A stretch of 64,000 nucleotides of DNA, taken from assembly GCA_043756865.1 (NCBI GenBank), contig JAYUQG010000025.1, positions 921 through 64,920 of the forward strand, read 5' to 3'. Below the pieces are notes generated by a model. The model made no database searches, was not told where the DNA came from, and saw only the letters and a list, made by a program, of their open reading frames with translations. The DNA comes from a bacterium. GTDB taxonomy: Bacteria > Patescibacteriota > Minisyncoccia > Phycocordibacterales > UBA6899. Below are positions 1,642 to 52,265 of this stretch, piece after piece (within the stretch, counting starts at the first letter, position 1; each line of letters opens with the position of its first letter). The position numbers and the translations under genes were made by a program.

Positions 1642-3045
1642 ATGACAGCAACAGCGGCAATGCCACAAAAGCCAAAACATATCCTTGACCAACACATCGC
1701 CCAAACGGCGGAAGTTGCGCTTGGTGCAGTGACCATGCGCGAGCACATCCAGTCTGTGAGCGGTCCATTCGGTGCCATTCTGAGCTACCAAGTCCGCTAC
1801 CCGAAAAAGGTGCTACGTGCACTGGAAATACTCTACGCAGAATACAATCGGGCATTCACCCCGCTCGTCGAAGCAAACAGAGAATGGGAGAGCGATTATC
1901 GCTTCTGTGTTTCGCCTAGCGGTGCCCCACTCAATCGATGGACGCAAATCGACATGGTCGGATTGCCACAGCAGTTTCTTGACGAAATTGACCGTTTTAG
2001 CGATGACGAGATTCTTGAAATACTGCGCGAGCGGACATTTGAAATCGAGAATTCACTTGCAATGTACCAGTTGCTTGAGCGCATCTTCAGCAATGCGGAA
2101 GGATTCTCGCAATTCGACTACTGCTTCCGCAGCTCTCTACGCGACGTACGCAAACAGCTGGGACGTCCCGTTGCACTGCTTGCAGTGACGCAGGAGAAGT
2201 ATCTCGACATGCGGGAAAAAGAGTTCGGCAAGCGCGATGGTGAAACACTCACCGACCTCGAAGTGCACGAACTTTCGGGTTTTGATAGGTTTTTTGGTCC
2301 CGAAGAATTCGCTGCGTACATTCACTCAAACGGGGGCATCTGCGCGTACGCACTGTATGTCCGTTCCTCTCATCCTATCGACAAACTCCGAAAGCCGGAA
2401 AACGAGATTGCGCATCCACTACTTGCCGATGCAGATATGCGTCGCATCATCAAGGCAAACTCGCTCACCTTGAATATCGATGCGCCGGAAATGGAGCCCG
2501 AGCGCAGGATTAACGACACGAAAGAATACATGCCAAGAATGGGCATGGGTTACCGCGTGAACGGCCAGTCAGACATTCTCACGCCAGAGTTCGAGGAACA
2601 TCTTGCCAGAGGAAAGACGTACGCTTCCTACGAAGGACAACGCCTCGCACACACATTCGCTGCGTATCTCGAAACACAGGGTATCGATCCGCAACAGGCG
2701 AGCGAAGGGGCGCTGACACTCCGCACAAAGCCGATGAAGGAAACTTACGGCTGCTACGGACACCTCACCGGAGAGTTGAGCGACAAGCGGTTCAGAAATC
2801 AGCTACGCACAAATATCCGCAAGCGTGGGTCCTACGTACTGCAACCTGAAATGTGGATTCCGAAAATCAGAAATACCACTACGGACGAAGAGTACTACTT
2901 CATTGACCGTAACTTCTTCTACACTGACGGCGAGCGTTTCTGTTTTATGGGCGGACTGCGATCGCTCATGCCTGCAGATTCGACCGAAGCGCAAAAGGGT
3001 CGCAATCACGGCAACAACTCCACTGTTTGTGTTGAAATCATTTAA
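1642..3045 (+). CDS. Hypothetical protein, possibly ATP-grasp-like carboxylate-amine ligase
   Basis: 467-aa ORF with an AAGGAG RBS 7 nt upstream. The C-terminal YVLQPEMWI ... DRNFFYTDGERFCFMGGLRS resembles ATP-grasp motifs. This is a weak recognition. Confidence 0.55.
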   Translation: MTATAAMPQKPKHILDQHIAQTAEVALGAVTMREHIQSVSGPFGAILSYQVRYPKKVLRALEILYAEYNRAFTPLVEANREWESDYRFCVSPSGAPLNRWTQIDMVGLPQQFLDEIDRFSDDEILEILRERTFEIENSLAMYQLLERIFSNAEGFSQFDYCFRSSLRDVRKQLGRPVALLAVTQEKYLDMREKEFGKRDGETLTDLEVHELSGFDRFFGPEEFAAYIHSNGGICAYALYVRSSHPIDKLRKPENEIAHPLLADADMRRIIKANSLTLNIDAPEMEPERRINDTKEYMPRMGMGYRVNGQSDILTPEFEEHLARGKTYASYEGQRLAHTFAAYLETQGIDPQQASEGALTLRTKPMKETYGCYGHLTGELSDKRFRNQLRTNIRKRGSYVLQPEMWIPKIRNTTTDEEYYFIDRNFFYTDGERFCFMGGLRSLMPADSTEAQKGRNHGNNSTVCVEII

Positions 3046-5952: not shown

Positions 5953-6005
5953 AATTTACGTATAGTAACATACAGCACCGTACATTCAGTAAAAGGAGAG
6001 TCTGC

Positions 6006-6868: not shown

Positions 6869-6878
6869 TTGTTCTTGA

Positions 6879-7346: not shown

Positions 7347-7409
7347 CGTATCTCCTCTGTGGTGAATCTCTGTACCATGCTACCAATACACGGCAAAAAA
7401 ACAATACGA

Positions 7410-23459: not shown

Positions 23460-25439
23460 TCAATCAGGAAGTGCGTCAATCGCAGCGAGTGACCCATTCA
23501 GCCACTCCATTGATTTAACGATGGGCATCTGGATTGCGCGTTCTCGTTCAAGGTCCAAGGAGCCAAGGTGTATGGCGGGTGGCGAGACAACCCACTTGAA
23601 GGTGGTGTTGTAGCTCATCTTCACAAACCCTTTCACCCACTTCTTGAGGAGTCCCTTTGTGTAACCAGGATAGACGCGTGCGAGATCATCGTCACTCCAC
23701 ATGTTGCGCACGATGCCATACACCTCGTGTGGCATCAGTTTCTCGCCGTAGAAGAGTTGGATGCAAGCATCCAAGACTTCAATCGAGCCGATGTCATCTT
23801 CATCGCGCTGGTCATCCGCAAGCTCTGCGGATTCTTCCGACGCTATGAGCGAATCCAGTGACGCAAGGTTGTGGCGAGTCTTTCGCAGGTGCGCAATCAA
23901 GGCACGCACGACTGTCTTCGGGAGATTCCCCAACAGCGAATATGCGCCTGCAGTGAAGTCGCCGCCGACAGTGCCGTACCCAAGCGCCTTCTCAGTCATG
24001 TTGCCGCAATGGACAAGCAATGAGCCGTCTGCGTTCGAAAGGTTCTGCATGCGTGTCATGCGAATGCGCGGCATGATGTTCTGCACCGCAATACCCGAAG
24101 GCTCAACTCCACCCAGTTGCGCACGGAGTTCAGCAAGTTCACGCTCGAACGCTTCCTGGATAGGACGCTCTTCAAACTGCACTCCAAGCTCTTCGCAGAG
24201 GTCGCGCGCGATCGACTTAGTGATCGTCGAGTTGAACCGGCTCGGCATTGATACACACTTGATGAAATTGCGTATCCAATCTTTCTTGTGTGGAAGATTC
24301 TTGTATCTTTTTTCCGCATACAGATACACCAACAAGAGTGTCAGGGCCGAGTCGCGGCCACCCGAAAGCGCGATGAGGGTCGATTTGAAGACTCTCGACT
24401 TTTCGAAGTACCCTTTGTACCCGAGCACCATCGCTTCGATGAGTTCTTCGAAGTACTCTTCGCGAGGTGTGAGCACAGGACCCTCCGCAAGCGACGGGAT
24501 CATGAAGCTTTTCTGGCTCGGGATTGGGTACTTGTAGGACGGATGATTCGCAGCGGGACCTGAGCCGGAGAACGAAATCAGCCGCGGTTGGGGCATGCCT
24601 GAGCGACGCGCTTCTTCCGCATCGATGCGACGTGTCGTGTTGGCGCTGCGCGAGAGCCGTGTGCGGTCGAGGTCCACAACCTGTGTCCACACACCTTCGG
24701 TCCAACGCACTGCTTCGAAAATCTTCTGGCCGTTCTGGAAGACAAATCCGCCACCGTCTAAGACGAGTGCGTCCATGCCACCAATTCCGTTCACGTACAG
24801 CAAGGTGCAGTAGTTATCGGACGAACGCGTCGCGAGCATTTCACGTCGCGTGCCAATGACACCTGCGCGCCACGGCGAACCGTTGATGCTTATGGCGACC
24901 TCGGCACCCGCATATGCGCGACGCTTCATGGGGCCGTCAGGCGACCAGCAATCCTCGCAAATTTCGACTTCCATCTTTCCAAACGGGAACTCGAAAATGA
25001 GATCACCAAAGGCAATGCCTTCGATCTCGCCATACATGCCGGGGAATCCCCGCGCAAAGGTGCGCATGTCGTAAAAGACACCGTAGGTCGGAAGCTTTTC
25101 CTTCGGCACAATGCCGAGGATGCGCCCATTGTTTACTACCGCGGCGCAGTTGTAGACAGCGTCGTCGTAGAACACTGCAAGGCCAAACACAAAGACGGAG
25201 TCGAACGCTTTCGTATCTGCGGCAAAGCGTTTGAGATACTGCCACTGCAAGTCCACGAAGCCCTGCCAGTGCACAAGGTCTTCTGCGGGATAGCCGCACA
25301 ACACCATTTCGGAAGTTGCGACAATTGTCGCATTTTCCTTTGCGGCCTTGAGTGCAGCGGAAAGCACCGCGTGGTAGTTCGTTTCCATTGCGCCGACAGT
25401 AACGTCGACATTGAGTCCGGCAAGTTTGATGAGTCTCAT
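23460..25439 (-). CDS. nadE: Glutamine-dependent NAD+ synthetase (N-terminal CN-hydrolase + NAD synthetase domain)
   Basis: N-terminal nitrilase-like domain. LIALSGGRDSALT PP-loop. Start at MRLIKLAGLN with GGAAGG RBS. Confidence 0.9.
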   Translation of the reverse strand: MRLIKLAGLNVDVTVGAMETNYHAVLSAALKAAKENATIVATSEMVLCGYPAEDLVHWQGFVDLQWQYLKRFAADTKAFDSVFVFGLAVFYDDAVYNCAAVVNNGRILGIVPKEKLPTYGVFYDMRTFARGFPGMYGEIEGIAFGDLIFEFPFGKMEVEICEDCWSPDGPMKRRAYAGAEVAISINGSPWRAGVIGTRREMLATRSSDNYCTLLYVNGIGGMDALVLDGGGFVFQNGQKIFEAVRWTEGVWTQVVDLDRTRLSRSANTTRRIDAEEARRSGMPQPRLISFSGSGPAANHPSYKYPIPSQKSFMIPSLAEGPVLTPREEYFEELIEAMVLGYKGYFEKSRVFKSTLIALSGGRDSALTLLLVYLYAEKRYKNLPHKKDWIRNFIKCVSMPSRFNSTITKSIARDLCEELGVQFEERPIQEAFERELAELRAQLGGVEPSGIAVQNIMPRIRMTRMQNLSNADGSLLVHCGNMTEKALGYGTVGGDFTAGAYSLLGNLPKTVVRALIAHLRKTRHNLASLDSLIASEESAELADDQRDEDDIGSIEVLDACIQLFYGEKLMPHEVYGIVRNMWSDDDLARVYPGYTKGLLKKWVKGFVKMSYNTTFKWVVSPPAIHLGSLDLERERAIQMPIVKSMEWLNGSLAAIDALPD

Positions 25440-25570
25440 GGAATATTCCTTCCGATGATTAATTAACAAAGAGCAATCACTCGTTGAGCACTTTATGTGT
25501 ATACAGTGCTCAATAAGTGGGCGGAGCATGTATTGCTACATACTCCGCCAAAAAACTTCTCGTGAAAAGA

Positions 25571-26911
25571 TCAGACGATGACCGCTTGTGTGATGCGATC
25601 TTCGCCGCCAAAGATTTCGACGTAACGTGCGACCTCATCCTTCGGGCCAGTAGCCTTTGTGATGTTGTCCGAGAGTTTCACGCACGGACGACCGTTGGCT
25701 TCGACGGCCTTGCACACGAGCGAGAACGGTTTGTAGACCTCGCGCCACGTGAGTGGCGAAAGTCCCGGCACCAACTCGTCGGCGCGCGGATGCAGGTCGG
25801 CGAAGTTATTGGTGAACATGGTTCCCTGAAGGAAACGTGTCTTGATTCGTCCGCGAAAGTGCCGCTCGATCTTGTCCATCGTGTCGGCCTTGTTGCCGTC
25901 GCTAAAGATGATCATCTTCGTCTTCGGGTCGATGCCGCGCGACTCGTACGCAGGGATGACAAGCTCATCACCAAACGTAAACGGGCTACCCGAATCATGG
26001 CGGTTTGTATGCCAGTTGTGCATGAGCCAATCCGGCGCATCACGATAGAAGCTCTTCGACATGAAGGTGTCCGGGAGTGCGACACCAAGCGCAGGGCCGT
26101 AGAGTGCGTCCCACTGGCGTAGCACCTCGTAGACCATCACAATCTTCGCATCGTTTCCGTCGACGAGCGCGTTCGTCACCATTTGCAGTTCGTGACCAAA
26201 TGTACCGCCGGGCACCATGTCATACTTCATCGCCATCCACACGTTGGATGTGCCGATGAGCTGACTACCGAGCACTTCCTTGCCGGCACGCAGGGTGAAC
26301 CGTTGCCAGTCAAAACTGTGTCTGCGACGAGTCCCACCCTCCAAGAGGATGATGTTCGGGTTCGCCTTGATACGGTGCAACTCTTCGTAATGCCGAGCTG
26401 TGGCGCGAGCGTAGACGACCTCGAGGTCAACGCGGCTCATGCGGCGCTCAAGCGAGAAGAAGTACAGATCCATGACGATGGCCATGGCGTAAATTTCCCA
26501 CATGCTCGCATGTGGCCAGTCCGACGGAAAACGCAGACGATACTGGTTGCCCTCACGACGTAGCTCGTAGTTTCCTGCACCGACACGAAAGTCGCGCAGG
26601 AACTCCAAGAACTCGTCGCTGAACATGTTGCGGTTCAAGACGTTGATGCCGCGGATGTAGGTCATGTCAGTGAGACTCGGACCGACATCGCACATGGCAT
26701 CCAGTGCCGCACGAAGTTCCGTCTCGTCGACGATTTCCGCGACCGGAATGTGGTGTTCGCGATTGATGAGCTCAAACGTGACGTTCACTTCCTTGTAGTA
26801 CTTCCAGATGAAGTGCAGCATCGTCAGCTTGTAAAAGTCGATGTCCGTGAACTTTTGCACGGGACGATAGGGACGTTCAGCGTGAAGCACGCGGTCAGCA
26901 AAGTCAGCCAT
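25571..26911 (-). CDS. pncB: Nicotinate phosphoribosyltransferase
   Basis: DFYKLTM signature near the N-terminus. About 445 aa. RBS AAAGGA. Confidence 0.85.
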   Translation of the reverse strand: MADFADRVLHAERPYRPVQKFTDIDFYKLTMLHFIWKYYKEVNVTFELINREHHIPVAEIVDETELRAALDAMCDVGPSLTDMTYIRGINVLNRNMFSDEFLEFLRDFRVGAGNYELRREGNQYRLRFPSDWPHASMWEIYAMAIVMDLYFFSLERRMSRVDLEVVYARATARHYEELHRIKANPNIILLEGGTRRRHSFDWQRFTLRAGKEVLGSQLIGTSNVWMAMKYDMVPGGTFGHELQMVTNALVDGNDAKIVMVYEVLRQWDALYGPALGVALPDTFMSKSFYRDAPDWLMHNWHTNRHDSGSPFTFGDELVIPAYESRGIDPKTKMIIFSDGNKADTMDKIERHFRGRIKTRFLQGTMFTNNFADLHPRADELVPGLSPLTWREVYKPFSLVCKAVEANGRPCVKLSDNITKATGPKDEVARYVEIFGGEDRITQAVIV

Positions 26912-27010
26912 TTGGCGTTCCTTTCGGGTTGGAAAAAACACAGTATCTTTTAAGAAACTACATCATTTTTACTGTTTTGTCAATGCTATTCCCTCTTCAA
27001 TTTCATAGAG

Positions 27011-29080: not shown

Positions 29081-30973
29081 TCATTTGACGCGGATGCGCC
29101 AAATACGGGAAGAGGTGACTGCATAAATGCCGTCGGAACCAAACAGTAGCTTCGTAGACGTATCCACGAAGCGTGCCGTGTCTGCATACGTTTTCGCTGC
29201 ATCGAGTGTCCCTTGCGGGGAACTTTCGACGCGAACGATTCCCTCATCGGTTGTGGCGAAAAGGAGCTTCCCTGTCGCACACTTGCCGTGAATGTTTTCG
29301 AGCCAGGAGCCGTCTCCGCGAGTTGCCTGCGCTGTACCAACCAACGTGCCATCTGATTTCCACATGAACATGTGGTTCGTGAGCACGCCTTGGTAATCGG
29401 TAGTCGCAGAAAACCAGCAATGGTCTGACGAGAATGTCGCAGTCGCGTCGATGAGCACTCCGTTCATTTTCGGGAGACTCACTTCACGTCCGATAGACAG
29501 GTGCTCGGGTTTGAAGAGATGCGCGCGCGTAATCTCGCCTGCTTGATAGAAGACGAAACCGAGATGCTCGGACACCCAGAGCAATGTCTGTCCTTGAAGC
29601 ACCTCGCCGACATTTTCGCCGTACGTGATACCGAGTACGCCACCGTACCTGCGCAGAAACCCGCCTTCGGCTGCGAACACATACTTGCTGTTCGCGTCGA
29701 CGATGGGCACGCGTCCCCGATAGAGGTCTACCGAGAAGCGATGCTCAGGATTACCGGAAGCATTTAGGAGTATTACCGTGCTTCCTTTTGCGATAACGGT
29801 CCGCGAACCGCTCAAGCGGATACGGAATTCCGGATCAATTGCGCCATCGAGGAGTTTTGCTGCCCCCTCACGTTTGTACACGTTGCTTTCGTTGTAGACG
29901 TACTTTGGCACTCCTCCTTGTGTAGTCGCGTAGAGGACGCGACCGAGTGTGTCGATGATTTTCGTTGCTTCCACCTTGTTAGTGATGACTTCGTTGACCG
30001 TCACTTCCGGCTGCGGTTGGCAGCTCGGGCATGAAGATCTCGCGTGCACCTGCTTGCATAGCGGGCACGCCGTGAAGCGTAGCCGCGAAAGCATCTGCAG
30101 AGGAATGCCGTCACGTTCATCGTGCACGAACATCTGCTCGAAACGATGCAGCAAGTCGTCCGGAAGAATTGCGTAATGCCGTGCCGCCTTTGGGTAGCGC
30201 ACTTCAGGTGAAAACACCGTCATGCGACCCCGTTGACGTTCGGAATCCGAGAATTTCTTCGCAGGAGCCTTAGGAATGTGTACGCCGCCATACGGGCCGA
30301 CGAACAAGAGTGCCTGCATGAGCATCACTGCGTATGCGTACCAGTCTGACTGCGCGTCGTGCGGCTTCTTGAGGTCGATGCCGCTCGAGAGGTCACAATG
30401 AGTCGGGTCCACAAAGCGTGGCGTAAAGACCCGCGACAGAAACTTGCCGAACTGCATGCTGTCTGCGTCGACGAGCATGGGGGTATCTGCCCCGTCAATC
30501 ATCACATTGAGGTCATTGAAGTCCCCGATGATGACACTTTTCCGGTGAATGCCGGAAATCAGTTCGTGCAGCTGGACGAGGATGCCAACCATGCGTTGAT
30601 CGGAAATTCCTTGTGCTTCCCGATACTTGCGTTCCGAGTACTTGAGCAGCACCTCCGCACCGGAGAGGAACTTCATCGAATAACCGATGATTGCCCCACC
30701 TTTCGCACCGGTAATAAGTGCGCGTGGACCAACAACTTGGTCGGGTAGCCCTTTGGGAAAGGCAGGCAACTTGAGCTGGTGCTCTTCAATACGTAATTGC
30801 GCCATTTTCTGCGCAACAGGATCGCCAGAGAAGGCGAGGTGCGAGGAAGTTTTGAAGATTTTCCCGACGTCCCCATTAGAAAGTCGATAGATCTCCGCTT
30901 CACCACCCTCACCCACCATGTCCTTGGGATTGAGTCGCTGGTGTGTTCCGTTGAACACCACTTCGATGGCCAT
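29081..30973 (-). CDS. Ser/Thr protein kinase-like domain fused to zinc ribbon and C-terminal repeat (propeller-like) domain
   Basis: Gly-loop VGEGGEAEIY, VGKIFK lysine, catalytic-loop-like IIGDFNDLNVMI, DFG-like VDADSMQFG. Then CPLCKQ...CPSC and repetitive beta-rich C-terminus. Confidence 0.7.
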   Translation of the reverse strand: MAIEVVFNGTHQRLNPKDMVGEGGEAEIYRLSNGDVGKIFKTSSHLAFSGDPVAQKMAQLRIEEHQLKLPAFPKGLPDQVVGPRALITGAKGGAIIGYSMKFLSGAEVLLKYSERKYREAQGISDQRMVGILVQLHELISGIHRKSVIIGDFNDLNVMIDGADTPMLVDADSMQFGKFLSRVFTPRFVDPTHCDLSSGIDLKKPHDAQSDWYAYAVMLMQALLFVGPYGGVHIPKAPAKKFSDSERQRGRMTVFSPEVRYPKAARHYAILPDDLLHRFEQMFVHDERDGIPLQMLSRLRFTACPLCKQVHARSSCPSCQPQPEVTVNEVITNKVEATKIIDTLGRVLYATTQGGVPKYVYNESNVYKREGAAKLLDGAIDPEFRIRLSGSRTVIAKGSTVILLNASGNPEHRFSVDLYRGRVPIVDANSKYVFAAEGGFLRRYGGVLGITYGENVGEVLQGQTLLWVSEHLGFVFYQAGEITRAHLFKPEHLSIGREVSLPKMNGVLIDATATFSSDHCWFSATTDYQGVLTNHMFMWKSDGTLVGTAQATRGDGSWLENIHGKCATGKLLFATTDEGIVRVESSPQGTLDAAKTYADTARFVDTSTKLLFGSDGIYAVTSSRIWRIRVK

Positions 30974-34746: not shown

Positions 34747-34790
34747 AAAAAAAACGACCGGCCCATTGGGCCGGTCTCTTTCTTATTCAA
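34747..34790. terminator. Bidirectional rho-independent terminator
   Basis: gaccggccc-att-gggccggtc (9-bp stem) flanked by A8 and a T-rich tail. Confidence 0.65.
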
Positions 34791-35928
34791 AACGAAGCTG
34801 GCGCCCCGATGCGCTTTCGGGAAGAAACGTTGCCCGAAGCGTTTGCTTGGAACCTTCTTTCCATCGCTCTAGCAACTTCATCTTCTTGTCGTAGCGCACA
34901 AACTCGATGCGCTTCCAGCCATGCTTTTTCGCATCAGCCTCTTTTGCAATGTCCGCATAAAGTTCGTGGATTGTCTGCGCCTTGTCAACGAGTGAAAGTG
35001 CAACCGCATCTTCGGAGTTAAACCATGCTCCGCTTGTGCGACCCATATCTTCTTTCGACTCGCGCATCAGTACATCCAGCGGAATCTTGCGTGACTCGCT
35101 CACGACTCCGGCAAAGCGGTTGAACGCTTGATCAACTTCGCGCTGAAACATAGCACGATCTCCCGGTGACATCGGTTTCCACTGGCTACCCGAATTCTTT
35201 CGAGGTCCGGTGGAAATCTCTTCTTCGCCAACTCCCAACAAATTGCCGAGCTTGCTCGTGTTGAAAAGGCGCATGATGACACCGATGTTTCCGACTGAAG
35301 CCTCCGGATCCATGATGATCTTGTCGCCTCCGAGCGCAATGTAATACCCACCAGAGTATGCGTGATCGGGCACATAGCTATACACGGGAATCTTAGTCTT
35401 TGCTTTGAATTCCTTGATGACGCGATAACTCTGGGCGCTTGCGACGGCACTTCCACCGCTTGAGGTAATGTACAGAATCACGCCTGCGACGTCTTTTTTA
35501 CCCTCGACAAGTTCGAGTGCATCCTTGAGGTACAGTGTCGTGTTTTCAAATCCCGGTGGCGCAAGCAGATCACCGTCGATACTTCCAATAATGGGAATAA
35601 TCGCGACGTGTCCAACGCCGGATGTTCCCGAAAGCGGAAGCACTGCAGTGGGTTCTTGTTCCACTCGCACATTTTCTGCGGGATCACCGCTAAAGAGAAA
35701 GAGGAAGCCGGCAATGACGACCGTCATTGAAAAAAACGTAACCACACGGCGGCGAAACCGACGCTTCGCTTCATTTTTCATTTCTGCAAAAATGTACGCG
35801 GCAACTTCTTTCAGTTCTCCCGCATAAGCAATGCCGACACTGGCGGGAACCCCTGTGGGCAACTTTCCGATAGCAGCCGAAGCACCACTAGTAGGTTCGG
35901 GTGTGGAATCAAGTTCTGACTGGGACAT
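34783..35928 (-). CDS. sppA: Signal peptide peptidase SppA (S49 family)
   Basis: ClpP/crotonase-fold S49 motifs: ILYITSSGGSAVAS ... YSGGYYIALGGDKIIM. N-terminal TM. Confidence 0.8.
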   Translation of the reverse strand: MSQSELDSTPEPTSGASAAIGKLPTGVPASVGIAYAGELKEVAAYIFAEMKNEAKRRFRRRVVTFFSMTVVIAGFLFLFSGDPAENVRVEQEPTAVLPLSGTSGVGHVAIIPIIGSIDGDLLAPPGFENTTLYLKDALELVEGKKDVAGVILYITSSGGSAVASAQSYRVIKEFKAKTKIPVYSYVPDHAYSGGYYIALGGDKIIMDPEASVGNIGVIMRLFNTSKLGNLLGVGEEEISTGPRKNSGSQWKPMSPGDRAMFQREVDQAFNRFAGVVSESRKIPLDVLMRESKEDMGRTSGAWFNSEDAVALSLVDKAQTIHELYADIAKEADAKKHGWKRIEFVRYDKKMKLLERWKEGSKQTLRATFLPESASGRQLRFE

Positions 35929-36091: not shown

Positions 36092-36976
36092 ATGAAGAAT
36101 CTTGTGTTTTTGTTCGCGTTTGCACTCGGCATACTTTCCGGCTGTGACACTTCGACCGTTTCGAGCAGCCCCCAAAGCGGTGCCTCGATTATTGCCGCCG
36201 CAAACCAGCAGCGTCACGCGATCATGACAAAGACTCGCGCAGCTGCATACCTCCTGTATCCAGACACACCGGACCCAGCGATCATGCAAGACCCCGGCTT
36301 TCTGGATCTTGCAAAAACCGACTTTCCCATGCTCGGCACCGCATTTGGTCTTAACGACAAAGGCCTAATCTTCACTTCTGCGCACGAAATCACTGACACC
36401 GGTTATTGCGCAGGAAAACCGAAAGGGCCAGGCATGCTCGGCGTGGAGGCACTCGAGCGCCAGCAAAAGAAAAAGGATACGTACTGCGTGCTTATCACAC
36501 AAACGTACAAAAAGGCGTATCGCGGCAAAGTCATCCACATCGACGAAAAGAATGACGTGGCCATCATTCAACTAGAAGGGCAACACTCAGGACTTCCATT
36601 TATTGAGTTAGCTGAAAGTGTCCAAGAAGGCGAGGAAGTGCTGACCGTTGGTGCAGCGCGAGGAAACCCCAACTTCACCACCACTGGCATCATCAGCAAC
36701 ACGGACTTCGAGGACAAAGAAAACTCCCCCGGACGCAAAGACATTCAATTCTTTGCCATCATCCACCCAGGAAACTCAGGCGGACCGCTTGTCTCAGTGG
36801 CTTCGGGAAAGGTTGTTGGACTCGTCCAACGCATCTTCATGATTCCCGTAATCACCGCTGACCAACAAACGGGACGACCCACTGGTACCGCGGTTGTCCC
36901 GACAGGTGCATCATTCGCGATTCACGTCGACGTCTTACGACGCGTTTACGAAGACATGAAATCAAGCCCCCGCTAA
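36092..36976 (+). CDS. Trypsin-like serine protease lipoprotein
   Basis: Lipobox LSGC. His/Asp/Ser triad with GNSGGPLV. Confidence 0.8.
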   Translation: MKNLVFLFAFALGILSGCDTSTVSSSPQSGASIIAAANQQRHAIMTKTRAAAYLLYPDTPDPAIMQDPGFLDLAKTDFPMLGTAFGLNDKGLIFTSAHEITDTGYCAGKPKGPGMLGVEALERQQKKKDTYCVLITQTYKKAYRGKVIHIDEKNDVAIIQLEGQHSGLPFIELAESVQEGEEVLTVGAARGNPNFTTTGIISNTDFEDKENSPGRKDIQFFAIIHPGNSGGPLVSVASGKVVGLVQRIFMIPVITADQQTGRPTGTAVVPTGASFAIHVDVLRRVYEDMKSSPR

Positions 36977-36990: not shown

Positions 36991-37031
36991 ACTGCGCCAT
37001 AAGAAAACACCCGCAATGAGCGGGTGTGTGT

Positions 37032-37691
37032 TTAGTTGAGCGGCACCAGTGGCACCGCAGGGCTGGGTGCATTCTGGGGCATCTGAATGACCGAGGGTGC
37101 TTCGTAAAAAGGAGTCAGGTCTTTCTCCGGAATCGGAGCGACAGGGTCGGGATGAAAATGCACACTCCCATCGTCCGGACCTTCTTCTTCACCGGAGGAA
37201 CCGGGTCTGCGTGGTTGTTTTTTCTTCGCATCGCCATCTTTTCCTTCGCCTTCCTTGCCCTCACCTTTCCCCTTTTGCTGACAGGCGCGATCGCCAATCA
37301 GTATCGTACCTTTACCTTGTGCGGCTTGTTTGTGCAGCTTGCTTCTTTGCAAACGCTGCGCGAACTTGAGGTCCCATGGGACAAAGATATAACGTGGCTC
37401 AGCGCCCTTAAGCTTCTTGTCTACAAGAAACAAATAGACACCGACACGCTCTTTGATTTCCGCATGGAGTACCGCATTGCACATACCCGGTGCACGGAGT
37501 TCGTCTGCTGTTCGCTGTTTCGGTCGTGAGAGCAAGTCGTCCAAGGCGAACCAACCAAGAGGCAACATGAGCACCGTAAGGGCGAGGGCGACGGAGCGCA
37601 TCACCAGCTGACGACGGGACCAGATCGTAATGGTACCGAGCGCGATTGCGATGAGTGCGAAGAGCACTACCAAGAGAGTGAGGTTGTTCAT
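37032..37691 (-). CDS. Single-pass membrane protein with low-complexity Lys/Glu/Gly and Pro-rich regions (TolA/TonB-like partner candidate)
   Basis: TM LTLLVVLFALIAIALGTITIW. KGKGEGKEGEGKDGDAKKK stretch and Pro-rich C-terminus. ATGA overlap with the upstream gene. RBS GGAAGGCGG. Confidence 0.45.
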   Translation of the reverse strand: MNNLTLLVVLFALIAIALGTITIWSRRQLVMRSVALALTVLMLPLGWFALDDLLSRPKQRTADELRAPGMCNAVLHAEIKERVGVYLFLVDKKLKGAEPRYIFVPWDLKFAQRLQRSKLHKQAAQGKGTILIGDRACQQKGKGEGKEGEGKDGDAKKKQPRRPGSSGEEEGPDDGSVHFHPDPVAPIPEKDLTPFYEAPSVIQMPQNAPSPAVPLVPLN

Positions 37692-38332
37692 TCTGTTTCC
37701 GCCTTCCACGCCCGAAGTGGTTTGTAGAGGTCATGCACGCTTTTCGGATCGACGTAACCAGTCGTGTCCATTTCGAAACGCGTCACCGTGAGTTCTTCGC
37801 CGTATTCACGGAGCACGGCCTGTCGGCTAATAACAGGACCAAGTGCATCCTCACCTTCTTTGCGAATACTCACCACAACGGTGACGGGGATTTCGGTGTG
37901 TGTTCCCATGGAACCGTACAGGTGCAAGTTGACCGTGAACTCACCCGCAGGGAGACCGCGGCACTCGACACGCTCATAATTCAACTGGAGCGGATCACCG
38001 AAACTTCCGCGGTCGTCGCGCAAGAGATTGCAAAACTTACCACCCCTGTTCGAATACCCGATTGGCTTGGGGTCTTCGGGGGATTGGATCCAAAGGTCCA
38101 CGTCCACGCTGACGGTATCGGGCCAGCGGATCTCGATGACCACGTTTCCGGCCTCTTGAATGAGTCCTTCTTTCTTCTTTTCGGCTTTTTCAACAATCGG
38201 CTTGATCATCACGAGTCCGACAAGCATCAGGAGCATAAACGCGAGCGTGAGTTTTTGCCAAAGATTCCCGAAAAATTGTGCCGTGGTGAGTTCGAACGGG
38301 TCAGACTCGTACACGATACACCCCCGCTTCAA
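37688..38332 (-). CDS. Single-pass membrane protein, ExbD/TolR-like topology (partner candidate)
   Basis: About 27-aa cytoplasmic N-terminus, TM LTLAFMLLMLVGLVMI, then a ~160-aa extracytoplasmic domain. Start is a non-ATG (TTG) codon; an ATG at 38236 would truncate the TM. Confidence 0.4.
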   Translation of the reverse strand: MKRGCIVYESDPFELTTAQFFGNLWQKLTLAFMLLMLVGLVMIKPIVEKAEKKKEGLIQEAGNVVIEIRWPDTVSVDVDLWIQSPEDPKPIGYSNRGGKFCNLLRDDRGSFGDPLQLNYERVECRGLPAGEFTVNLHLYGSMGTHTEIPVTVVVSIRKEGEDALGPVISRQAVLREYGEELTVTRFEMDTTGYVDPKSVHDLYKPLRAWKAETE

Positions 38333-38987
38333 TCAGCGCAGACGTGAGTTGCACGTTTCCGCTTTTCAGAATGCGCAGCAGAAAACCGAGCCAGAGGGCG
38401 AATGCGCCGCCAAGCAGAGTTGCCGCAAGTGCGATTTCCAGCCCAGGCATGACGGCCTTCAAGAGTTCGGTGATTTTCGGATCGGAAGATGTGCCAAGTA
38501 CCGAAAATGCAGAGGAAAACACCATCATGCCCATGACCGTCCCGATGATGCCGAGCGAAACCATGTTGCTCATGTTTTGAGCGACACCCATGATCTTCGA
38601 ATCCATCGTACGATAAAGGTCAAACTCGATTGAGCGACGGTTATCGGGAGTGAGGTCGGCTACTTTACGCAAGTATTGCGCCAAACGCGAACGTCCGCGC
38701 TCGATTGCAACACACGCGTCGACATCCGCGAGGATGCGAAGCTGGTGGAGATACCCACGCGCGGTGTTCAGTTCCCGCGAGGTCTTCGAGAGTTTCCACG
38801 TGCAGTCCACAATGGCAAACACAAAGTATGCGATCATGATGCGACAGATGTATGTCGTATCACCCGCAATCATCTGCGTGATCCATCCCGACTGCCACAC
38901 AACCCAGAACACGAGGCCTCCGAGCACGTTGTAGATTGCCCACTGCATGAACATGAGATAGTTCGTATCCTCAAGCTTGTTTACCAT
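38301..38987 (-). CDS. MotA/TolQ/ExbB-family proton-channel protein
   Basis: Three TMs. C-terminal LGIIGTVMGMMVFSSAF ... VMPGLEIALAATLLGGAFAL matches the TolQ/ExbB core. AAGGAG RBS 6 nt upstream. Confidence 0.7.
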   Translation of the reverse strand: MVNKLEDTNYLMFMQWAIYNVLGGLVFWVVWQSGWITQMIAGDTTYICRIMIAYFVFAIVDCTWKLSKTSRELNTARGYLHQLRILADVDACVAIERGRSRLAQYLRKVADLTPDNRRSIEFDLYRTMDSKIMGVAQNMSNMVSLGIIGTVMGMMVFSSAFSVLGTSSDPKITELLKAVMPGLEIALAATLLGGAFALWLGFLLRILKSGNVQLTSALIEAGVYRVRV

Positions 38988-39140
38988 GATTGGCTCCTTT
39001 GAAAATTGACAAAAATCTATTACTATTTTTCATATTAATCCTGTCTGACCTCATTACAAGCAAATTCACAACACAACACACTTCCCCGATGCTGTGAATA
39101 CTTTTCGCTGTTTGTATCCATAATTTGCTATACTCTCCTG

Positions 39141-39728
39141 ATGGACATTGAGGCGATCATTGTGAGTTCAAGTTATGCTGGAATTTTTGGTCTCATGATA
39201 GCGAACGGATTTTTGTCTTTTCCGTCCAGTCAGATTCTCTATATTATTGTGGGCTATTTTGTGGGCACAGGAGCACTCGCACTCCTCCCCGCCTCGCTCC
39301 TGGGTGCACTCGGCAATGCCATCGGAAACGTGCTCATGTATGAAGCGATTAGAAGGCACGGTATTTCTTACGTCGAGAAATTTTCCATATTTCGCAAGGA
39401 AGACATAAAAAAAATTGAGGCCGTATTTAGAAAACGTGGCCTTTGGTTCCTTTTTATTGGAAAACTCCTCCCCGCCATCAAAGTATTTATTCCGATCCCC
39501 GCGGCGCTCGGTCGAGTCGACCGAAAAGTTTTTGCGGCAATGATGTTTGCCGCATCATGGATATGGGCACTCTTGTTTATCAGCATCGGATATTTCTTCG
39601 GAAAAACAGCAGGGCTCTGGAAGTCCTATGGGGTCATCCTTGCAGTCATCGCATTTGGACTCCTGTTTCTTTTTTATCGCTACATGAATAGCAAAGCTAT
39701 CCTCGCGGAGATTTCTCGCGAAAAGTAG
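39141..39728 (+). CDS. DedA/TVP38 family membrane protein
   Basis: VTT-domain signature LYEAIRRHG ... F.GKLLP.IKVFIP. Confidence 0.75.
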   Translation: MDIEAIIVSSSYAGIFGLMIANGFLSFPSSQILYIIVGYFVGTGALALLPASLLGALGNAIGNVLMYEAIRRHGISYVEKFSIFRKEDIKKIEAVFRKRGLWFLFIGKLLPAIKVFIPIPAALGRVDRKVFAAMMFAASWIWALLFISIGYFFGKTAGLWKSYGVILAVIAFGLLFLFYRYMNSKAILAEISREK

Positions 39729-41205
39729 AACCTTGGCGATACGCACGAACACACAGCATAAAGAGCAGTGCATAGACGACACACACAACAAATCCCGATA
39801 CGGGAGGGATGGTTATATATCCAAATGGAATATCGGCAAATAATCGTCCCATTGCAATAATGTATGAAAGTGACACATACGCAGGAATCGCCGCGATAAG
39901 CCCAAATCCAGTACCAAAAAACGCGCTCAGTCCTCCGACAAAAGAGAAAAGCATCGCTGCGGGAATAATTGGGAGTACGAGTATGTTTACCAAAAGTCCG
40001 ATGAGCGATAGCCCTCCGCTACCGTAGATGAGGAGTGGCGTAACAAACAGTTGGGTTGCTACCGTTGAAAGGACAATCTCTTCAAGCTTTGGCCATGCCC
40101 GCAAGCGGGTGAAGTGCATCTTGAGTATAGGCACAAATAGGAGTAATCCTGAGGCAGCAAGAAATGAAAGTTGGAATGACGGATCATACAGCAGAATTCC
40201 CGGTGCATGGAGCACCATTAATGCCCCCGCAAAAAGCAGTGCGCGAGACATGTCGTACGTACGACCCAACACTCGCGCAAGAAGCACAAGTAGCGCCATC
40301 AGCATTGCACGTATGACGGTGGCACTTCCGCCAGCCATTATTCCAAAGAGCGTCACACCAAGAGCAGCACAGCCGATACTTCCCCAGAATCCCGTGAAGA
40401 GAAATATGACACGAAGCCACTCTGCAACAATCGTCATATTGTAGCCGGACAGAACTACAATATGAATAATTCCACTTTGCCGAAAATCTTCGGTGAGCGA
40501 GTCTCCCAGTGAACGCTTGTCGCCAAGGAGAATTCCTCCGGCCAATGCCCCTGAAGGGTCAGGAAGTACTTTGCCAAGCTGTTCTTTGAAACTTGCTTTT
40601 ATGCGGAGCAACATACCTTTTACGGGATTTGCCGCACTATCTCCCGTGCGGGTTATGGTGGGGCGCGACAGAGTAAGACGAATGTCCTTTGCCGCAAGGT
40701 ATTGGTCGTACGCAAACACTCTTCCGTTTTCTGTTTCGAACAACTTGGGTCGTGCCAGTGTTCCGCGGAGTTCGATGACTTCGCCGTATACATATGTGGG
40801 GTAGATGTCCGTTGATACAAGCACGAGTGCGTCAACGGGAGTTTTTTCGGAACTGATTGTGCGCAAGCGCACCGTGAGGTTCACCTTATGCTCCCGCACA
40901 TCAGGCTCCTCAGCGATAACACCACGCATAACCGCCTCCGTCCCCACCGTTCGTGCTAATTCGGGCTGCACTCCCGTATTGCTCCAATACCCAAACCGCA
41001 ACACTCCAACGGCAGCACAAAAAAGCATGATTCCACAAACTACAAACAGGCGCTTTCTGCGCACGAGTCCCACGAAGAGTACAACTCCAGCAAGCAAAAG
41101 AAAAAGCCCCACAACCCCAACATCAGCAGCAAACACACCTGCAAGGAAAATCCCCGCAAGGAAAGCGAGGAGAAAAAAATGGATATATTCGTTCAATAAA
41201 CGCAT
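39697..41205 (-). CDS. comEC: ComEC/Rec2 DNA-uptake channel protein (membrane competence domain only, no MBL domain)
   Basis: DUF4131-like N-terminus plus competence domain (IIHIVVLSGYNMTIVA). 502 aa with multiple TMs. Confidence 0.8.
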   Translation of the reverse strand: MRLLNEYIHFFLLAFLAGIFLAGVFAADVGVVGLFLLLAGVVLFVGLVRRKRLFVVCGIMLFCAAVGVLRFGYWSNTGVQPELARTVGTEAVMRGVIAEEPDVREHKVNLTVRLRTISSEKTPVDALVLVSTDIYPTYVYGEVIELRGTLARPKLFETENGRVFAYDQYLAAKDIRLTLSRPTITRTGDSAANPVKGMLLRIKASFKEQLGKVLPDPSGALAGGILLGDKRSLGDSLTEDFRQSGIIHIVVLSGYNMTIVAEWLRVIFLFTGFWGSIGCAALGVTLFGIMAGGSATVIRAMLMALLVLLARVLGRTYDMSRALLFAGALMVLHAPGILLYDPSFQLSFLAASGLLLFVPILKMHFTRLRAWPKLEEIVLSTVATQLFVTPLLIYGSGGLSLIGLLVNILVLPIIPAAMLFSFVGGLSAFFGTGFGLIAAIPAYVSLSYIIAMGRLFADIPFGYITIPPVSGFVVCVVYALLFMLCVRAYRQGSTFREKSPRG

Positions 41206-48216: not shown

Positions 48217-49683
48217 TTACAGCTCATCCCACGAAAGAATTTGATATTGATCGGTGGTGAGAGGAAATGAGGGGGGTGGTCCATACAGAAGATTCGCATC
48301 AAAAGTGGAAATTTGTGATGCATAACCAGAACAATACGATCCGCACGACCATGAGAACGTGTAGCGCTGATTGCTTATCAGTGAGCCGAACGTAGTTATG
48401 CTGTTGCGCAGATGTGAGGCTCCACAGCTGGCACCGTAATAATCTCGCCAAATTGCACCTGACTGCGCGAGCAAAGCGCCGTCAATTCTGAGATTGTCTG
48501 CGCTTGCGTAACCAATGCGGATATAATTCTGTGCGATTAACCCAATAACGTCTGTTCCGTCCATGCGGGTATAACGAATGTCGTTGTTCACAATAATGCT
48601 TGCCCGCGTGGTCGGATTATCTGGAAAACGCGCTGCAGCAATTGTGAGCCTACTACCATCTATCGTTCCTTCAACCCAGACGTCATCTTCGGTAAATATG
48701 AGTCCGTTCGCGGGATAGGCGACGTTTCCAGCGAGCAGTGTCTCTGTTTGTATGCTCCACATGCCTCCACCAGGGTCTGCGTACGTGTACCAAGCAGCAC
48801 AATTTGCGGCAGGAGAAGGGAGTCTTGCGGTTACTATGTAAATATCAAGCACCCCTGTAGGCTTGAGTACAATATGATATCCGAGCGCGCCCGAAGCACC
48901 ATAATAGAGACCCGATGCTTGTGCTCCAGATTTAATTATTGCGAGGTCAGCCATCATTCCAGTAAAGTCCACTGCAGGAACGGCAACTTGCCTGCCAGCC
49001 ATAAACACGTCTGGACGATTGGGTATAGCAGAAGGTGGGGCGGGGTCGCCCGTGGGGTATGTTGGGAGCAGAGGCTTGTCGGTATACACTCCGAAGTGCG
49101 TCCCGCCGAAATCTGGATCTACGTAGGTAGCTCTCGCGCTCGTCACAACATTGTGTGCAACTACGTTGCTGAAGTGCACTCCCCCGTTTGCGTGATACAA
49201 TCCAAAAAATTCAACTTGGTCTTCCCACACATCGGTATTTGTCACCAGTGCGTATTTCGCAAACGAAGGCTTGGCAAATCGCGCTTGAATTGAGCGCGAA
49301 ACGGTTGGTTCATTGTCGATATTTCCGGTTGATTTCACTGTCACAAGAGTGCTTCCCACTGTGGGTGGTGTGATGTCAAGTGTATATGATCCAATTTTTG
49401 TACCACTTTTGTCATAGTAGTCATGCACGTACGGCCCGGTAGTACCAGTACCGTCTTGGTAATCAGTGGGGGCATGCGCTAAATGCCATCGGTAGTAATC
49501 GATTCCTGCCTCAGCAACGGCGAGGGCTTGTTCTCGCGCCTCAGAATGCCTCGCTACACGCACAGACATAACGCCCCAGCCAACTAAACCGGATAGAAAT
49601 ATCATCCCGATAGTCATAAAGGCGATGACCTGAATAAGTATTCCTCCGCGCTGCGACACATGTTTCGCCAATAAAAATTTCAT
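48217..49683 (-). CDS. PilX-N-like type IV pilus minor pilin/tip protein
   Basis: N-terminus QRGGILIQVIAFMTIGMIFLSGL resembles the PilX N-terminal domain. 488 aa. Confidence 0.6.
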   Translation of the reverse strand: MKFLLAKHVSQRGGILIQVIAFMTIGMIFLSGLVGWGVMSVRVARHSEAREQALAVAEAGIDYYRWHLAHAPTDYQDGTGTTGPYVHDYYDKSGTKIGSYTLDITPPTVGSTLVTVKSTGNIDNEPTVSRSIQARFAKPSFAKYALVTNTDVWEDQVEFFGLYHANGGVHFSNVVAHNVVTSARATYVDPDFGGTHFGVYTDKPLLPTYPTGDPAPPSAIPNRPDVFMAGRQVAVPAVDFTGMMADLAIIKSGAQASGLYYGASGALGYHIVLKPTGVLDIYIVTARLPSPAANCAAWYTYADPGGGMWSIQTETLLAGNVAYPANGLIFTEDDVWVEGTIDGSRLTIAAARFPDNPTTRASIIVNNDIRYTRMDGTDVIGLIAQNYIRIGYASADNLRIDGALLAQSGAIWRDYYGASCGASHLRNSITTFGSLISNQRYTFSWSCGSYCSGYASQISTFDANLLYGPPPSFPLTTDQYQILSWDEL

Positions 49684-50447: not shown

Positions 50448-52265
50448 CTATGGCATCATTCCCACCTGCTTCTCCTGCCACGGGGTGCCCGCATTCACCA
50501 CAACCGTGTCTACTGTAGTGCTATATCCTGTCTTTGTAACAGTGAGATTGTATGTGCCATTCGAAAGACCTTGAAAAATGACTTGCCCTGGCGGCACACA
50601 CGCGGAAGTGAATGTAAACTGTGCATCAGAAATATTTGGGGTGAGCGTACTCGACGCGGTGCTTAAATACATCTTGTAACGCAAATAGCGGTGGCCATTG
50701 TGTGCCGGCGAAACATCGGTTGTGGTCGACGTGTAAAACGTGCTGGCAGTACCGTCGGGGCCTATATAGTTCCAAGAACTCGTCGAATTTCCTGTTGCAA
50801 GATGAAAAAGCGCGCTATTTACCCCCGTATCCGGTGGTTGGGTTGAAGGGAAAAATGTAAATTGATAGAAATTAGCGGGTGCCCCAGTATCAAATGTTGA
50901 CGAGGTAAGCTCTCCACTTGGTGAATAGGTACCAAGAGATTCTCTCAACTGTACCCCACCGGGGAGCCCTGACGTATCAATGTTGCCGTCATTGCTCGCA
51001 TGCATAGTAATATCCCCAATGTCACTTTGGCCCGAACCGCCCGACCAGTCTGTCTGACGAAGGTACCCTCTCCCCGTAACTTCCGTCGTAGAGGCACCCC
51101 CCCGTTCAAGTTTGACCGTAGCACCAGTAACAGGCAGCCCTGTTCCCACATCCTTCACGGTCACCACTACTGAGGACGGGTTTTTAGGCACCATTACTAA
51201 CTGTATGTTCTGTGTTGCACCGGGGGCTATGGCAATCGGGGTAAGCGGAACGATTCCCGCAACATCATATGCACTTGAAGTTGCAATAAGTGCGTATGAG
51301 TCCCACTCCACACCACTAAGCGTTTTTAATCCAGCACCATTGGTCATGGAAAACATATCGTACTTAAATACGTTGGGTGTAGTCGCAATAAGCTTACTTC
51401 CCGTGAGCTGAAAATTCACATTTGGTACAACTGCACATGAGGGAGTCACACTTGAAAAATCTAGTGTCGCAGTACGATCAATCATAAACGTAAGTTGTGT
51501 CACCGCTTGTATGGCAACCGTTGCATGTGGTTTCACGGGATTCGTTGTCGTCGGTGCACCATACGTTTGTTCTGATGAGTATCCCGTTTTACTCACGGCA
51601 ATTTCATACGACCCCACTGCTGGTGGTGCCCCAACAAGCTGCAGCATGCCCGTGAGCGTTGTGCTGTCGTTGATATTTACCACGGGCACACTTGACCCAT
51701 TGTACACACGCACATTTGCGGAAGGTACAGGGAGCCCACCGGAATCAATGACACGCACAAACAATGAACCATCAGTGGAGGCGCTCTCGAGATTGAGAGG
51801 AGCAATGCTCGTGGTAAATATTAGCGGACGGAAATTTGGACAGGATACACAGGATAACTCAACCTCCACCAATTTATTATCTGCAGGAGAAAGGTCATCA
51901 GGGGCACCGCCGGCAGTACCATCAAATGGCTGGTCAAGGTTACGAACAGTTGTTGTGGAAATGAACGTTTTTCCTCCAGAAATGACTGTCTGCACGGGTG
52001 GAATCACTCCCGCAGGAATTCCCCCAATGGTTCCCACCTGAGCATACGGAAGATTGCGGATAATTTCGAACTGCGCGTTCGCCGCAGCTGTTGCGTCTAC
52101 TCGCGCCTGTGCATACCGCGCCACCACAAACACGCGTTGATACGTTGCAAAAATGGTTGTCGCGATAAAAGCAAACAAGGCAACACCAATCACTGTTTCA
52201 ATAAGTGACAGGCCACGCATATGCCCTGCATAATTTGTTGAAGAAATATATGTTCGGTTGATCAT
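50448..52265 (-). CDS. Large prepilin-type protein (605 aa)
   Basis: RGLSLIETVIGVALFAFI prepilin N-terminus followed by a long Thr/Ser/Gly-rich beta-rich body. Confidence 0.6.
   Translation of the reverse strand: MINRTYISSTNYAGHMRGLSLIETVIGVALFAFIATTIFATYQRVFVVARYAQARVDATAAANAQFEIIRNLPYAQVGTIGGIPAGVIPPVQTVISGGKTFISTTTVRNLDQPFDGTAGGAPDDLSPADNKLVEVELSCVSCPNFRPLIFTTSIAPLNLESASTDGSLFVRVIDSGGLPVPSANVRVYNGSSVPVVNINDSTTLTGMLQLVGAPPAVGSYEIAVSKTGYSSEQTYGAPTTTNPVKPHATVAIQAVTQLTFMIDRTATLDFSSVTPSCAVVPNVNFQLTGSKLIATTPNVFKYDMFSMTNGAGLKTLSGVEWDSYALIATSSAYDVAGIVPLTPIAIAPGATQNIQLVMVPKNPSSVVVTVKDVGTGLPVTGATVKLERGGASTTEVTGRGYLRQTDWSGGSGQSDIGDITMHASNDGNIDTSGLPGGVQLRESLGTYSPSGELTSSTFDTGAPANFYQFTFFPSTQPPDTGVNSALFHLATGNSTSSWNYIGPDGTASTFYTSTTTDVSPAHNGHRYLRYKMYLSTASSTLTPNISDAQFTFTSACVPPGQVIFQGLSNGTYNLTVTKTGYSTTVDTVVVNAGTPWQEKQVGMMP

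Follow-up and report, generated by a model that had tools for sequence, protein, structure and literature searches.

A three-gene operon joining a MotA/TolQ/ExbB family protein to two undescribed membrane proteins in Alphaproteobacteria, phages, and a Patescibacteria lineage: a possible Tol/Ton-like complex of a new subtype

Results

An operon of three overlapping genes

We analyzed a 64,000-nucleotide stretch of a Patescibacteria contig (JAYUQG010000025.1 of GenBank assembly GCA_043756865.1, positions 921 to 64,920 of the forward strand; hereafter the window) and focused on three overlapping open reading frames (ORFs), which we call g1, g2, and g3 (together, the trio), lying head to tail on the minus strand where an initial annotation, made from the letters alone, had placed them (Table 1). 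The 3′ end of g1 overlaps the start of g2 by 14 nt, which is comparable with the 14–23 nt seen in relatives, and the stop codon of g2 overlaps the start codon of g3 in the sequence ATGA. Because the starts overlap in this way and a hairpin terminator follows g3, we conclude that the three genes form one operon and are translationally coupled. The coupling had been proposed in the initial annotation together with a probable non-ATG start for g2, and such a start is most likely, as one at the GTG at 38314 agrees with the 208-residue protein on record for the contig. Further, because homologues of g1, g2, and g3 occur in the same order in more than 150 fetched loci, we regard all three ORFs as real genes. 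The promoter of the operon is presumably located in the region between g1 and the divergent gene upstream of it; a scan for consensus promoters in this region detected a single promoter-like site, which is on the plus strand, and located none for the trio.

g1 is a member of the MotA/TolQ/ExbB family

Residues 134–214 of g1 match the Pfam model MotA_ExbB (PF01618) with 33 bits (E = 5.7e-08), the gathering threshold of this model being 22.9 bits, and the motifs LGIIGTVMGMM and LEIALAATLLGG represent the two conserved channel helices. Hydropathy analysis predicts four membrane helices (residues ~12–34, 44–62, 143–161, and 185–203) and a short cytoplasmic domain of about 70 residues (~67–135). 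As a word-indexed homologue search retrieved only three relatives of g1, the g1 and g3 families were rebuilt from the genes neighboring g2 homologues. In the resulting alignment of 32 g1 family members, Thr-150 (in LG(L/I)IGTV), Thr-190 (in A..T(L)xG), and Asp-43, which sits in the first outer loop, are invariant. Thr-150 and Thr-190 align with the GTV and ATA motifs of TolQ bearing Thr-145 and Thr-178 (Thr-148 and Thr-181 in ExbB), the threonines that line the proton path on the last two helices. The single g1 sequence did not match any solved structure, and the 32-member family profile was required to detect similarity, with MotA (8gqy) as the best match (E = 5e-5), followed by TolQ (8odt; E = 3e-4) and also a ZorA-like chain, PomA, and ExbB. 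Consistent with this, an hhalign comparison of the g1 profile with Escherichia coli TolQ gave an E value of 1.3e-4. The NCBIfam models of individual subfamilies all scored far below their cut-offs (exbB2, 19.8 versus 135; tolQ, 14.9 versus 221; ZorA_2, 9 versus 100). Overall, we conclude from these comparisons that g1, as the initial annotation had it, is a true member of the MotA/TolQ/ExbB family and that, within the trio, it alone belongs to a known family.

g2 has a single membrane helix and a predicted β-sandwich domain

The product of g2 has a basic or acidic N terminus resembling that of ExbD and a single hydrophobic segment (residues 23–41 by hydropathy). An AlphaFold2 model built with 51 sequences (predicted local distance difference test (pLDDT), 89.9) has an N-terminal membrane helix at residues 6–36, followed by a short helix and an eight-strand β-sandwich at residues 57–182, which is predicted to be extracytoplasmic. 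No model in Pfam (2025 copy), NCBIfam release 20, PADLOC, or PHROGs matches g2, and the initial description of the protein as ExbD/TolR-like in topology, with no recognizable ExbD sequence, stands. Neither a sequence comparison nor a Foldseek search with the g2 model (E ≤ 1e-3) yielded a solved relative; the closest folds were generic β-sandwiches, including a calcium-bound Bacteroides protein. Matches to DUF2135 (PF09906) stayed below threshold in 21 of 51 family members (best E = 0.0032), the g2 of the window itself being unmatched. The outer domain of the family is rich in invariant Asp, Asn, and Glu (Asp-71, Asp-73, Asn-89, Asp-100, Asp-101, Asp-107, Asn-112, and Glu-114), and this acidic and asparagine-rich set may serve to bind calcium or a glycan. 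The family is large: a word-indexed search returned 1,124 relatives, all of them uninformatively named and free of Pfam domains, and an exhaustive profile search returned 1,992 clusters at 50% identity, 1,435 of them with E ≤ 1e-10.

Near the cytoplasmic end of the helix, most members of the g2 family carry the motif T-V-F-R-D-V, which precedes a hydrophobic stretch ending in proline. The aspartate of this motif is conserved in 241 of the 262 sequences aligned (92%); in a count by category, all 78 non-Patescibacteria genomes have it, as do 72 of the 79 copies from viruses. Its position is consistent with that of Asp-23 in TolR.

g3 has a two-helix membrane hairpin and a Pro-rich tail

Two hydrophobic segments were found in g3 by hydropathy (residues 5–23 and 29–54), and a poor AlphaFold2 model (four sequences; pLDDT, 48) places helices at residues 3–21 and 27–54. 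This two-helix membrane hairpin is common to all g3 homologues, and g3 is thus not the single-pass protein it was initially taken to be. The hairpin, with a basic loop (WSRR; W-S/P-R-R in the family), is followed by an LLSRPK motif (L-L-S-R-P-K-P in the family), a small β/α domain with the motifs EPRY..VPW and AQRLQ (E-P-R-x-Y-x-L-P-W and A-x-Q-L-Q in the family), and a Pro-rich tail with the conserved C-terminal motif FHPDPVAPIPEK (F-[YH]-x-x-P-x-P-x-x-P-x-K across the family); Trp-106, Ala-111, and Lys-190 are invariant in the family alignment. A stretch rich in Lys, Gly, and Glu is an insertion exclusive to the Patescibacteria copies, where it brings in a pair of cysteines (Cys-71 and Cys-137) kept in every member of the clade. 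Hence, of the low-complexity linkers noted initially, the Lys/Glu/Gly stretch is real but is not a conserved linker of the family, whereas the Pro-rich tail is family-wide. The cysteine pair and the strongly basic loop between the helices suggest that the soluble part of g3 is extracytoplasmic. A word-indexed search found only four close relatives of g3, yet the gene 3′ of g2 is homologous to it nearly everywhere. We found no Pfam or Protein Data Bank match for g3, no Pfam hit above threshold in 46 g3 homologues, and no model for the protein in the NCBIfam, PADLOC, and PHROGs collections searched with g2.

The trio is widespread in Alphaproteobacteria and collinear with core genes in Patescibacteria

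Scanning a single genome for each species, we located g2 in at least 577 species. Among the matches listed, most loci are from Alphaproteobacteria (Azospirillum, Pelagibius, Denitrobaculum, Meinhardsimonia, Skermanella, Geminicoccaceae, and Kiloniellales), and the few loci in other phyla include two from Patescibacteria (UBA6023 and a Lloydbacteria genome). The trio is not peculiar to an organism devoid of an outer membrane; its main carriers are diderm Alphaproteobacteria and the phages of these bacteria. In 80 of 80 genome loci, g1 lies next to g2, and g3 follows in about 74 of 81, whereas the next commonest neighbor cluster, antisense-ORF artifacts aside, occurs in at most 9 of the 80; because no further neighbor is conserved, the trio is self-contained in Alphaproteobacteria. 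It is present at two places in each of the seven Azospirillum chromid records, with 96.7–97.8% identity to the A. tabaci query, and its surroundings in HR40 and Azospirillum resemble those of housekeeping genes rather than islands. In locus L089, taken from plasmid p1 of Azospirillum brasilense Sp7 (NZ_CP012915; around 986 kb), with the trio at positions 6130–8073 of the locus, genes for an amidase-like and a BON-like protein are located upstream on the other strand.

The nearest relatives of the trio in the window are those of Patescibacteria (UBA6023 and Lloydbacteria), which, together with the synteny described below, places the window in Patescibacteria. The sequences from Patescibacteria group into one clade in neighbor-joining trees, a simple method that we applied to BLOSUM distances. 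In these genomes, the trio is part of a block that reads RecJ, RNase H, ComEC, DedA (opposite strand), trio, trypsin-like protease (opposite strand), SppA, and NT5C/histidine phosphatase; the order is kept across relatives that are 43–55% identical and is the same in the window. The order ComEC-DedA-trio is seen in all Patescibacteria loci reaching that far (the contig of one, L085, stops just past DedA), and the proximity of the trio to ComEC reflects collinearity of this ~12-kb block within the Patescibacteria lineage. Full-text searches of the literature for DUF2135, for MotA/ExbB proteins in Patescibacteria, and for the genes of phage 16-3 did not reveal any description of the trio.

The trio is carried by temperate phages

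A tblastn search detected g2 in ten temperate phages of Rhizobium and Sinorhizobium. Family profiles revealed that Rhizobium phage 16-3 (NC_011103; locus L090, 4295–7183) carries the whole trio, with p038 as a mini-g1 of 138 residues that retains helices 1–2 and 3–4 (E = 5e-10), p040 as g2 (E = 2e-45), and p042 as g3 (E = 2e-11). All three are annotated only as hypothetical proteins, and small inserted genes interrupt the trio, which lies ~4 kb beyond the immX immunity region and is preceded by a gene for a trypsin-like protease, p036. In phage RHph_TM3_3_14B (locus L091, 4129–7271), in which the p038 homologue matches the g1 profile with E = 4e-20, the cluster begins directly after attL and is split by a Seg-like homing endonuclease gene. 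Further, 83 viral contigs in IMG/VR contain a relative of g2, and g1, g2, and g3 follow one another in order in 61 of the 80 loci fetched. The genes around them are genuinely of phage type, encoding portal, terminase, and scaffold proteins and a DNA repair exonuclease, and the position of the trio varies among phage groups, being either among the early genes or in the head module between portal and scaffold, as is typical of accessory “moron” genes. The viral g2 sequences are scattered over the neighbor-joining tree, which implies repeated exchange, and three of them form the sister group of the Patescibacteria clade, a placement that is no more than suggestive. Overall, judging from these searches, the trio constitutes a large unannotated family that is common in Alphaproteobacteria, repeatedly phage-borne, and fixed in one Patescibacteria lineage.

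An exported protease and other genes near the trio

A gene for a trypsin-like protease adjoins the trio in 5 of the 6 loci from Patescibacteria, where it is downstream and convergent, in 20 of 78 IMG/VR viral loci, where it is directly upstream on the same strand, and in both GenBank phages, where it is upstream on the same strand, but in none of 78 other bacterial loci. The protease of the window, by inferred topology, shares its compartment with the soluble domains of g2 and g3, and it may be an associated fourth component of the trio. We considered a specific kinship between the proteases of the window and the phages and rejected it, as only generic trypsin-family similarity was found (pairwise E = 6e-4; 51 bits against a viral-only profile).

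The remaining genes of interest in the window are listed in Table 1. Beside the gene for the type IV pilus ATPase is a run of large minus-strand ORFs, which may encode pilus or surface proteins, and two genes of NAD salvage and synthesis adjoin each other elsewhere in the window. In agreement with the expectation in the initial annotation, no TonB-dependent receptor was found among the ten largest ORFs of the window.

Table 1. Features of the trio locus and of its surroundings in the window
Feature	Coordinates	Strand	Remarks
g1	38987..38301	-	228 aa; ATG start, AAAGGAG upstream
g2	38314..37688	-	208 aa; GTG start most likely; GGGGG run a few bases upstream
g3	37691..37032	-	219 aa; ATG start
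Terminator-like hairpin	37027..37007	-	GC-rich, T tail; 3′ of g3, closes the three-gene operon
Divergent intergenic region	38988..39140		153 bp, separates g1 from the DedA/VTT gene; includes the ribosome-binding site of g1 (AAAGGAG)
Promoter-like site	38999..39026	+	
Trypsin_2 protease	36092..36976	+	Exported, lipoprotein-type signal LSGC; Pfam match; convergent with g3
SppA/S49 peptidase	34783..35928	-	Beyond the trypsin-like protease; order kept in all related Patescibacteria loci reaching that far
DedA/VTT gene	39141..39728	+	Divergent from g1; 3′ end overlaps the ComEC 3′ end by about 32 nt
ComEC gene	39697..41205	-	DUF4131 and Competence domains; convergent with the DedA/VTT gene
Type IV pilus/type II secretion ATPase	58154..59944	-	T2SSE and MshEN domains
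Three large ORFs	48217..49683, 50448..52265, 52289..54118	-	Two (488 and 609 aa) with no Pfam match; that of 605 aa only CarboxypepD_reg-like
Long ORF	29081..30973	-	630 aa; no Pfam match at E ≤ 1e-5
Long ORF	1642..3045	+	467 aa; no Pfam match at E ≤ 1e-5
NAD salvage/synthesis genes	23460..26941	-	Glutamine-dependent NAD synthetase (CN_hydrolase and NAD_synthase domains); nicotinate phosphoribosyltransferase

Discussion

With moderate confidence, we propose that the trio encodes a motor-type complex of the cytoplasmic membrane that is Tol/Ton-like but of a new subtype, with two previously undescribed partner subunits. By analogy with the solved 5:2 motors, g1 would be the channel subunit and form a pentameric ring; g2 would occupy the place of ExbD, TolR, or MotB, with its helix inside the g1 ring and its β-sandwich holding a component of the envelope; and g3 would occupy the place of TolA or TonB, with its hairpin docked outside the ring and its outer domain and Pro-rich tail contacting the target. 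In most members, ion flow via the aspartate of g2 and the threonines of g1 would drive the complex, which would pass energy or a conformational change to something beyond the membrane. In the lineage of the window, in which this aspartate is exchanged for Asn together with a Gln-Lys pair one helical turn on, the complex might use another coupling residue or chemistry, or it might be static or free of ion flux. A function at the level of the envelope, such as anchoring or remodeling of the wall, possibly together with the neighboring exported protease, appears most likely, and the stable, housekeeping-like contexts of the trio in Alphaproteobacteria and Patescibacteria point to envelope maintenance.

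Several observations weigh against this proposal. Patescibacteria do not have an outer membrane on which a Tol/Ton-like system could act. The fold modeled for the outer domain of g2 is other than that of ExbD, TolR, or the OmpA-like domain of MotB, and the best local hhalign match between the g2 profile and E. coli TolR, although it sets FRDV on Leu-21, Asp-23, and Val-24, is weak (E = 0.045; probability about 1%). The helices of g3 contain neither a histidine nor the SHLS pattern (S-x3-H-x6-L-x3-S), and the protein has no TonB_C or TolA domain. The phage versions of g1 are wholly devoid of the cytoplasmic domain. Further, the g2 of the window has Asn-16 in the column of the aspartate (F-G-N-L-W-Q-K), followed by Gln-20 and Lys-21, and its helix does not contain any other acidic residue. 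The aspartate is lost in 6 of the 7 Patescibacteria copies of g2 that we analyzed (replaced by Asn or Ala); one clade member (L085) is also without the second channel threonine of g1, and in a separate clade of phages, in which the trio lies between portal and scaffold genes, R-[A/T/G]-Y stands in place of the aspartate motif.

Other members of the Patescibacteria clade have Ser in the aspartate column. All Patescibacteria copies of g2 that are devoid of the aspartate have gained Gln-Lys 4–5 residues downstream, whereas the Lloydbacteria copy (L010), which is the one clade member to keep the aspartate, does not have this pair. The phage clade (loci L111, L113–L115, L121, L126, and L132 from IMG/VR; trio at about 5200–7200) represents a second, independent lineage without the aspartate. 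A compensating acidic residue in g3 (DLLSRPK) or in helix 2 of g1 was considered and rejected, as one locus (L086) has neither, and the position in g3 varies in Alphaproteobacteria (Asp, Gly, Ser, Glu, Thr, or Gln). Exchanges of Asp for Asn inactivate MotB (Asp-32), ExbD (Asp-25), and TolR (Asp-23). Because the helix aspartate is replaced and such exchanges inactivate the known motors, canonical proton coupling is doubtful in the copy of the window. The drive by proton motive force assumed in the initial annotation is thus called into question for this copy.

A role in conflict between phage and host and a degenerate scaffold are the main rivals of the motor-type complex. In the former, which we regard as possible although unlikely, the trio, together with the exported protease where there is one, would block or sense incoming phage at the envelope, in superinfection exclusion or in a defense comparable in principle to that by the ZorAB part of Zorya, and the Patescibacteria copy would be a domesticated descendant; such a role is compatible with a motor architecture. 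It would account for the complete trio in the temperate phages 16-3 and RHph_TM3_3_14B, in 16-3 close to the immunity region, for its moron-like occurrence at varied positions in most IMG/VR loci, for the scatter of viral sequences in the g2 tree, and for the variable genomic context in Alphaproteobacteria. Conversely, PADLOC gave no match, and no cytoplasmic effector (nuclease or NTPase) is associated with the trio; the contexts in HR40 and Azospirillum look like those of housekeeping genes, the presence in all seven Azospirillum chromids is that of a stable core gene, and in Patescibacteria the trio resides within a conserved block of core genes. The defense role raised in the initial annotation therefore does not correspond to any known system in PADLOC, whereas the carriage by phages makes a conflict role conceivable. 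We also offer, as a speculation we rather doubt, that the trio defines an unrecognized class of MotA/ExbB-type machine, with a DUF2135-like β-sandwich in the B subunit and a two-helix protein as the third subunit. This class would be exchanged between phages and bacteria and would serve in conflicts at the envelope (superinfection exclusion or defense), at times with an exported protease, and the Patescibacteria branch, with the copy of the window, would have re-engineered the ion path (Asn plus Lys) into one that is charge-inverted or independent of protons, in cells devoid of an outer membrane. The other main rival is that the trio of the window is a degenerate relic, a membrane scaffold that neither conducts nor turns and is kept for a structural role of its outer domains. 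The repeated loss of the aspartate, independently in Patescibacteria and in the phage clade, the replacement of the second channel threonine in L085, and the inactivation of known motors by the Asp-to-Asn exchange all argue for this scenario, which we nevertheless consider rather improbable. Thr-150 and most glycines of the channel helices are retained, and in the Patescibacteria the loss of the aspartate is strictly tied to the gain of Gln-Lys, which resembles replacement rather than decay. Moreover, because the three proteins are intact, and their motifs, overlapping starts, and order are kept, among relatives that are as divergent as 43–55% identity, selection appears to have continued on the whole complex.

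The trio could also energize or assist ComEC, which is encoded two genes away, as an accessory of DNA uptake. The order ComEC-DedA-trio in Patescibacteria speaks for such a role, as do a resemblance of g3 to the N-terminal DUF4131 region of ComEC (two helices and an OB-like domain), the order β-β-β-α-β in the low-confidence g3 model, and matches to DUF4131 (PF13567) in 15 of the 46 g3 homologues, which are weak (best E = 0.005) but collinear, with residues 7–92 of g3 on profile positions 6–91. However, these matches score 10–14 bits against a cut-off of 31.6 and may be driven by the hydrophobic hairpin, and an hhalign comparison of the g3 profile with ComEC N termini was not significant (E = 0.028; probability 1.8%). 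Further, the synteny in Patescibacteria spans ~12 kb of unrelated genes, and ComEC is not near the trio in 78 other bacterial loci or in phages. Because the linkage is absent from other hosts, the proximity to ComEC is no argument for energization of DNA uptake, a role that the initial annotation had put forward and that we now consider improbable. We give still less credence to a conventional Ton or Tol system or to a stator of flagella, gliding, or pili, even though the genes are arranged like tolQRA and exbBD-tonB, g1 shares the superfamily of such systems, and the type IV pilus ATPase gene is ~20 kb off. g2 does not have an ExbD, TolR, or OmpA domain and is modeled with another fold, g3 is devoid of TonB_C and TolA domains, the exbB2 and tolQ models score g1 far under their cut-offs, no TonB-dependent receptor is among the ten largest ORFs of the window, and no motility gene is conserved beside the trio in more than 150 loci. 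Alphaproteobacteria normally own canonical Tol and Ton systems, and the trio would be an additional system there.

Ion-driven 5:2 machines power flagella, Ton, Tol, gliding with type IX secretion, and Zorya defense. If the trio is a motor-type complex of the kind we propose, it would add a further branch to this family of machines, with ~2,000 clusters, at least 577 species, and many phages. It is accessible in A. brasilense, which is culturable and genetically tractable, and in 16-3, a classical temperate phage, and the variants devoid of the aspartate, those of the window and of a single phage clade, provide natural experiments on the need for a proton-carrying aspartate. In Patescibacteria, whose epibiotic lifestyle is believed to center on surface biology, the trio represents a conserved and unexplained part of the envelope, encoded next to an exported protease.

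Among the known systems, TolQ-TolR-TolA and ExbB-ExbD-TonB share with the trio the order of a channel subunit, a single-helix subunit, and a membrane-anchored third subunit; the Pfam family of g1, with both channel threonines kept; an aspartate near the cytoplasmic end of the helix in the g2 family; and soluble parts of the second and third proteins that are predicted to be outside the cytoplasm. The trio differs from them in that g1 has four helices, the additional one being N-terminal, with a short cytoplasmic domain, in that g2 has a weakly DUF2135-like β-sandwich in place of the α-β fold of ExbD and TolR, in that g3 is a two-helix hairpin without the SHLS pattern and domains of TonB and TolA, and in that linked outer-membrane partners and, in the window, the aspartate are missing. 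With MotAB and PomAB, the trio has in common the four-helix, MotA-like topology of g1, for which MotA was also the best structural match, although g1 is without the large cytoplasmic domain that generates torque, g2 is without the plug and the OmpA-like peptidoglycan-binding domain of MotB, and flagellar genes are not found nearby.

Like ZorAB of Zorya, the trio contains a MotA/ExbB-type pair that is outside motility and transport and has a mobile distribution, and profile similarity between the two is weak (E = 0.02–0.05). Unlike ZorAB, the trio has neither the long ZorA tail nor the peptidoglycan-binding domain of ZorB nor effectors of the ZorC/D type (no linked ZorC/D/E/F/G genes were found beside it in the genome loci or the window), does not match PADLOC or NCBIfam models at threshold, and is borne by phages themselves. 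DUF2135 (a YfaP-type β-sandwich) resembles the outer domain of g2 in the recurrent weak matches described above and in a similar motif pattern around acidic residues, but these matches remain below threshold, and we know of no DUF2135 protein that is paired with a MotA/ExbB protein. Overall, the trio does not qualify as an ExbD/TolR, MotB, TonB/TolA, or Zorya system, yet in layout it is closest to Tol/Ton.

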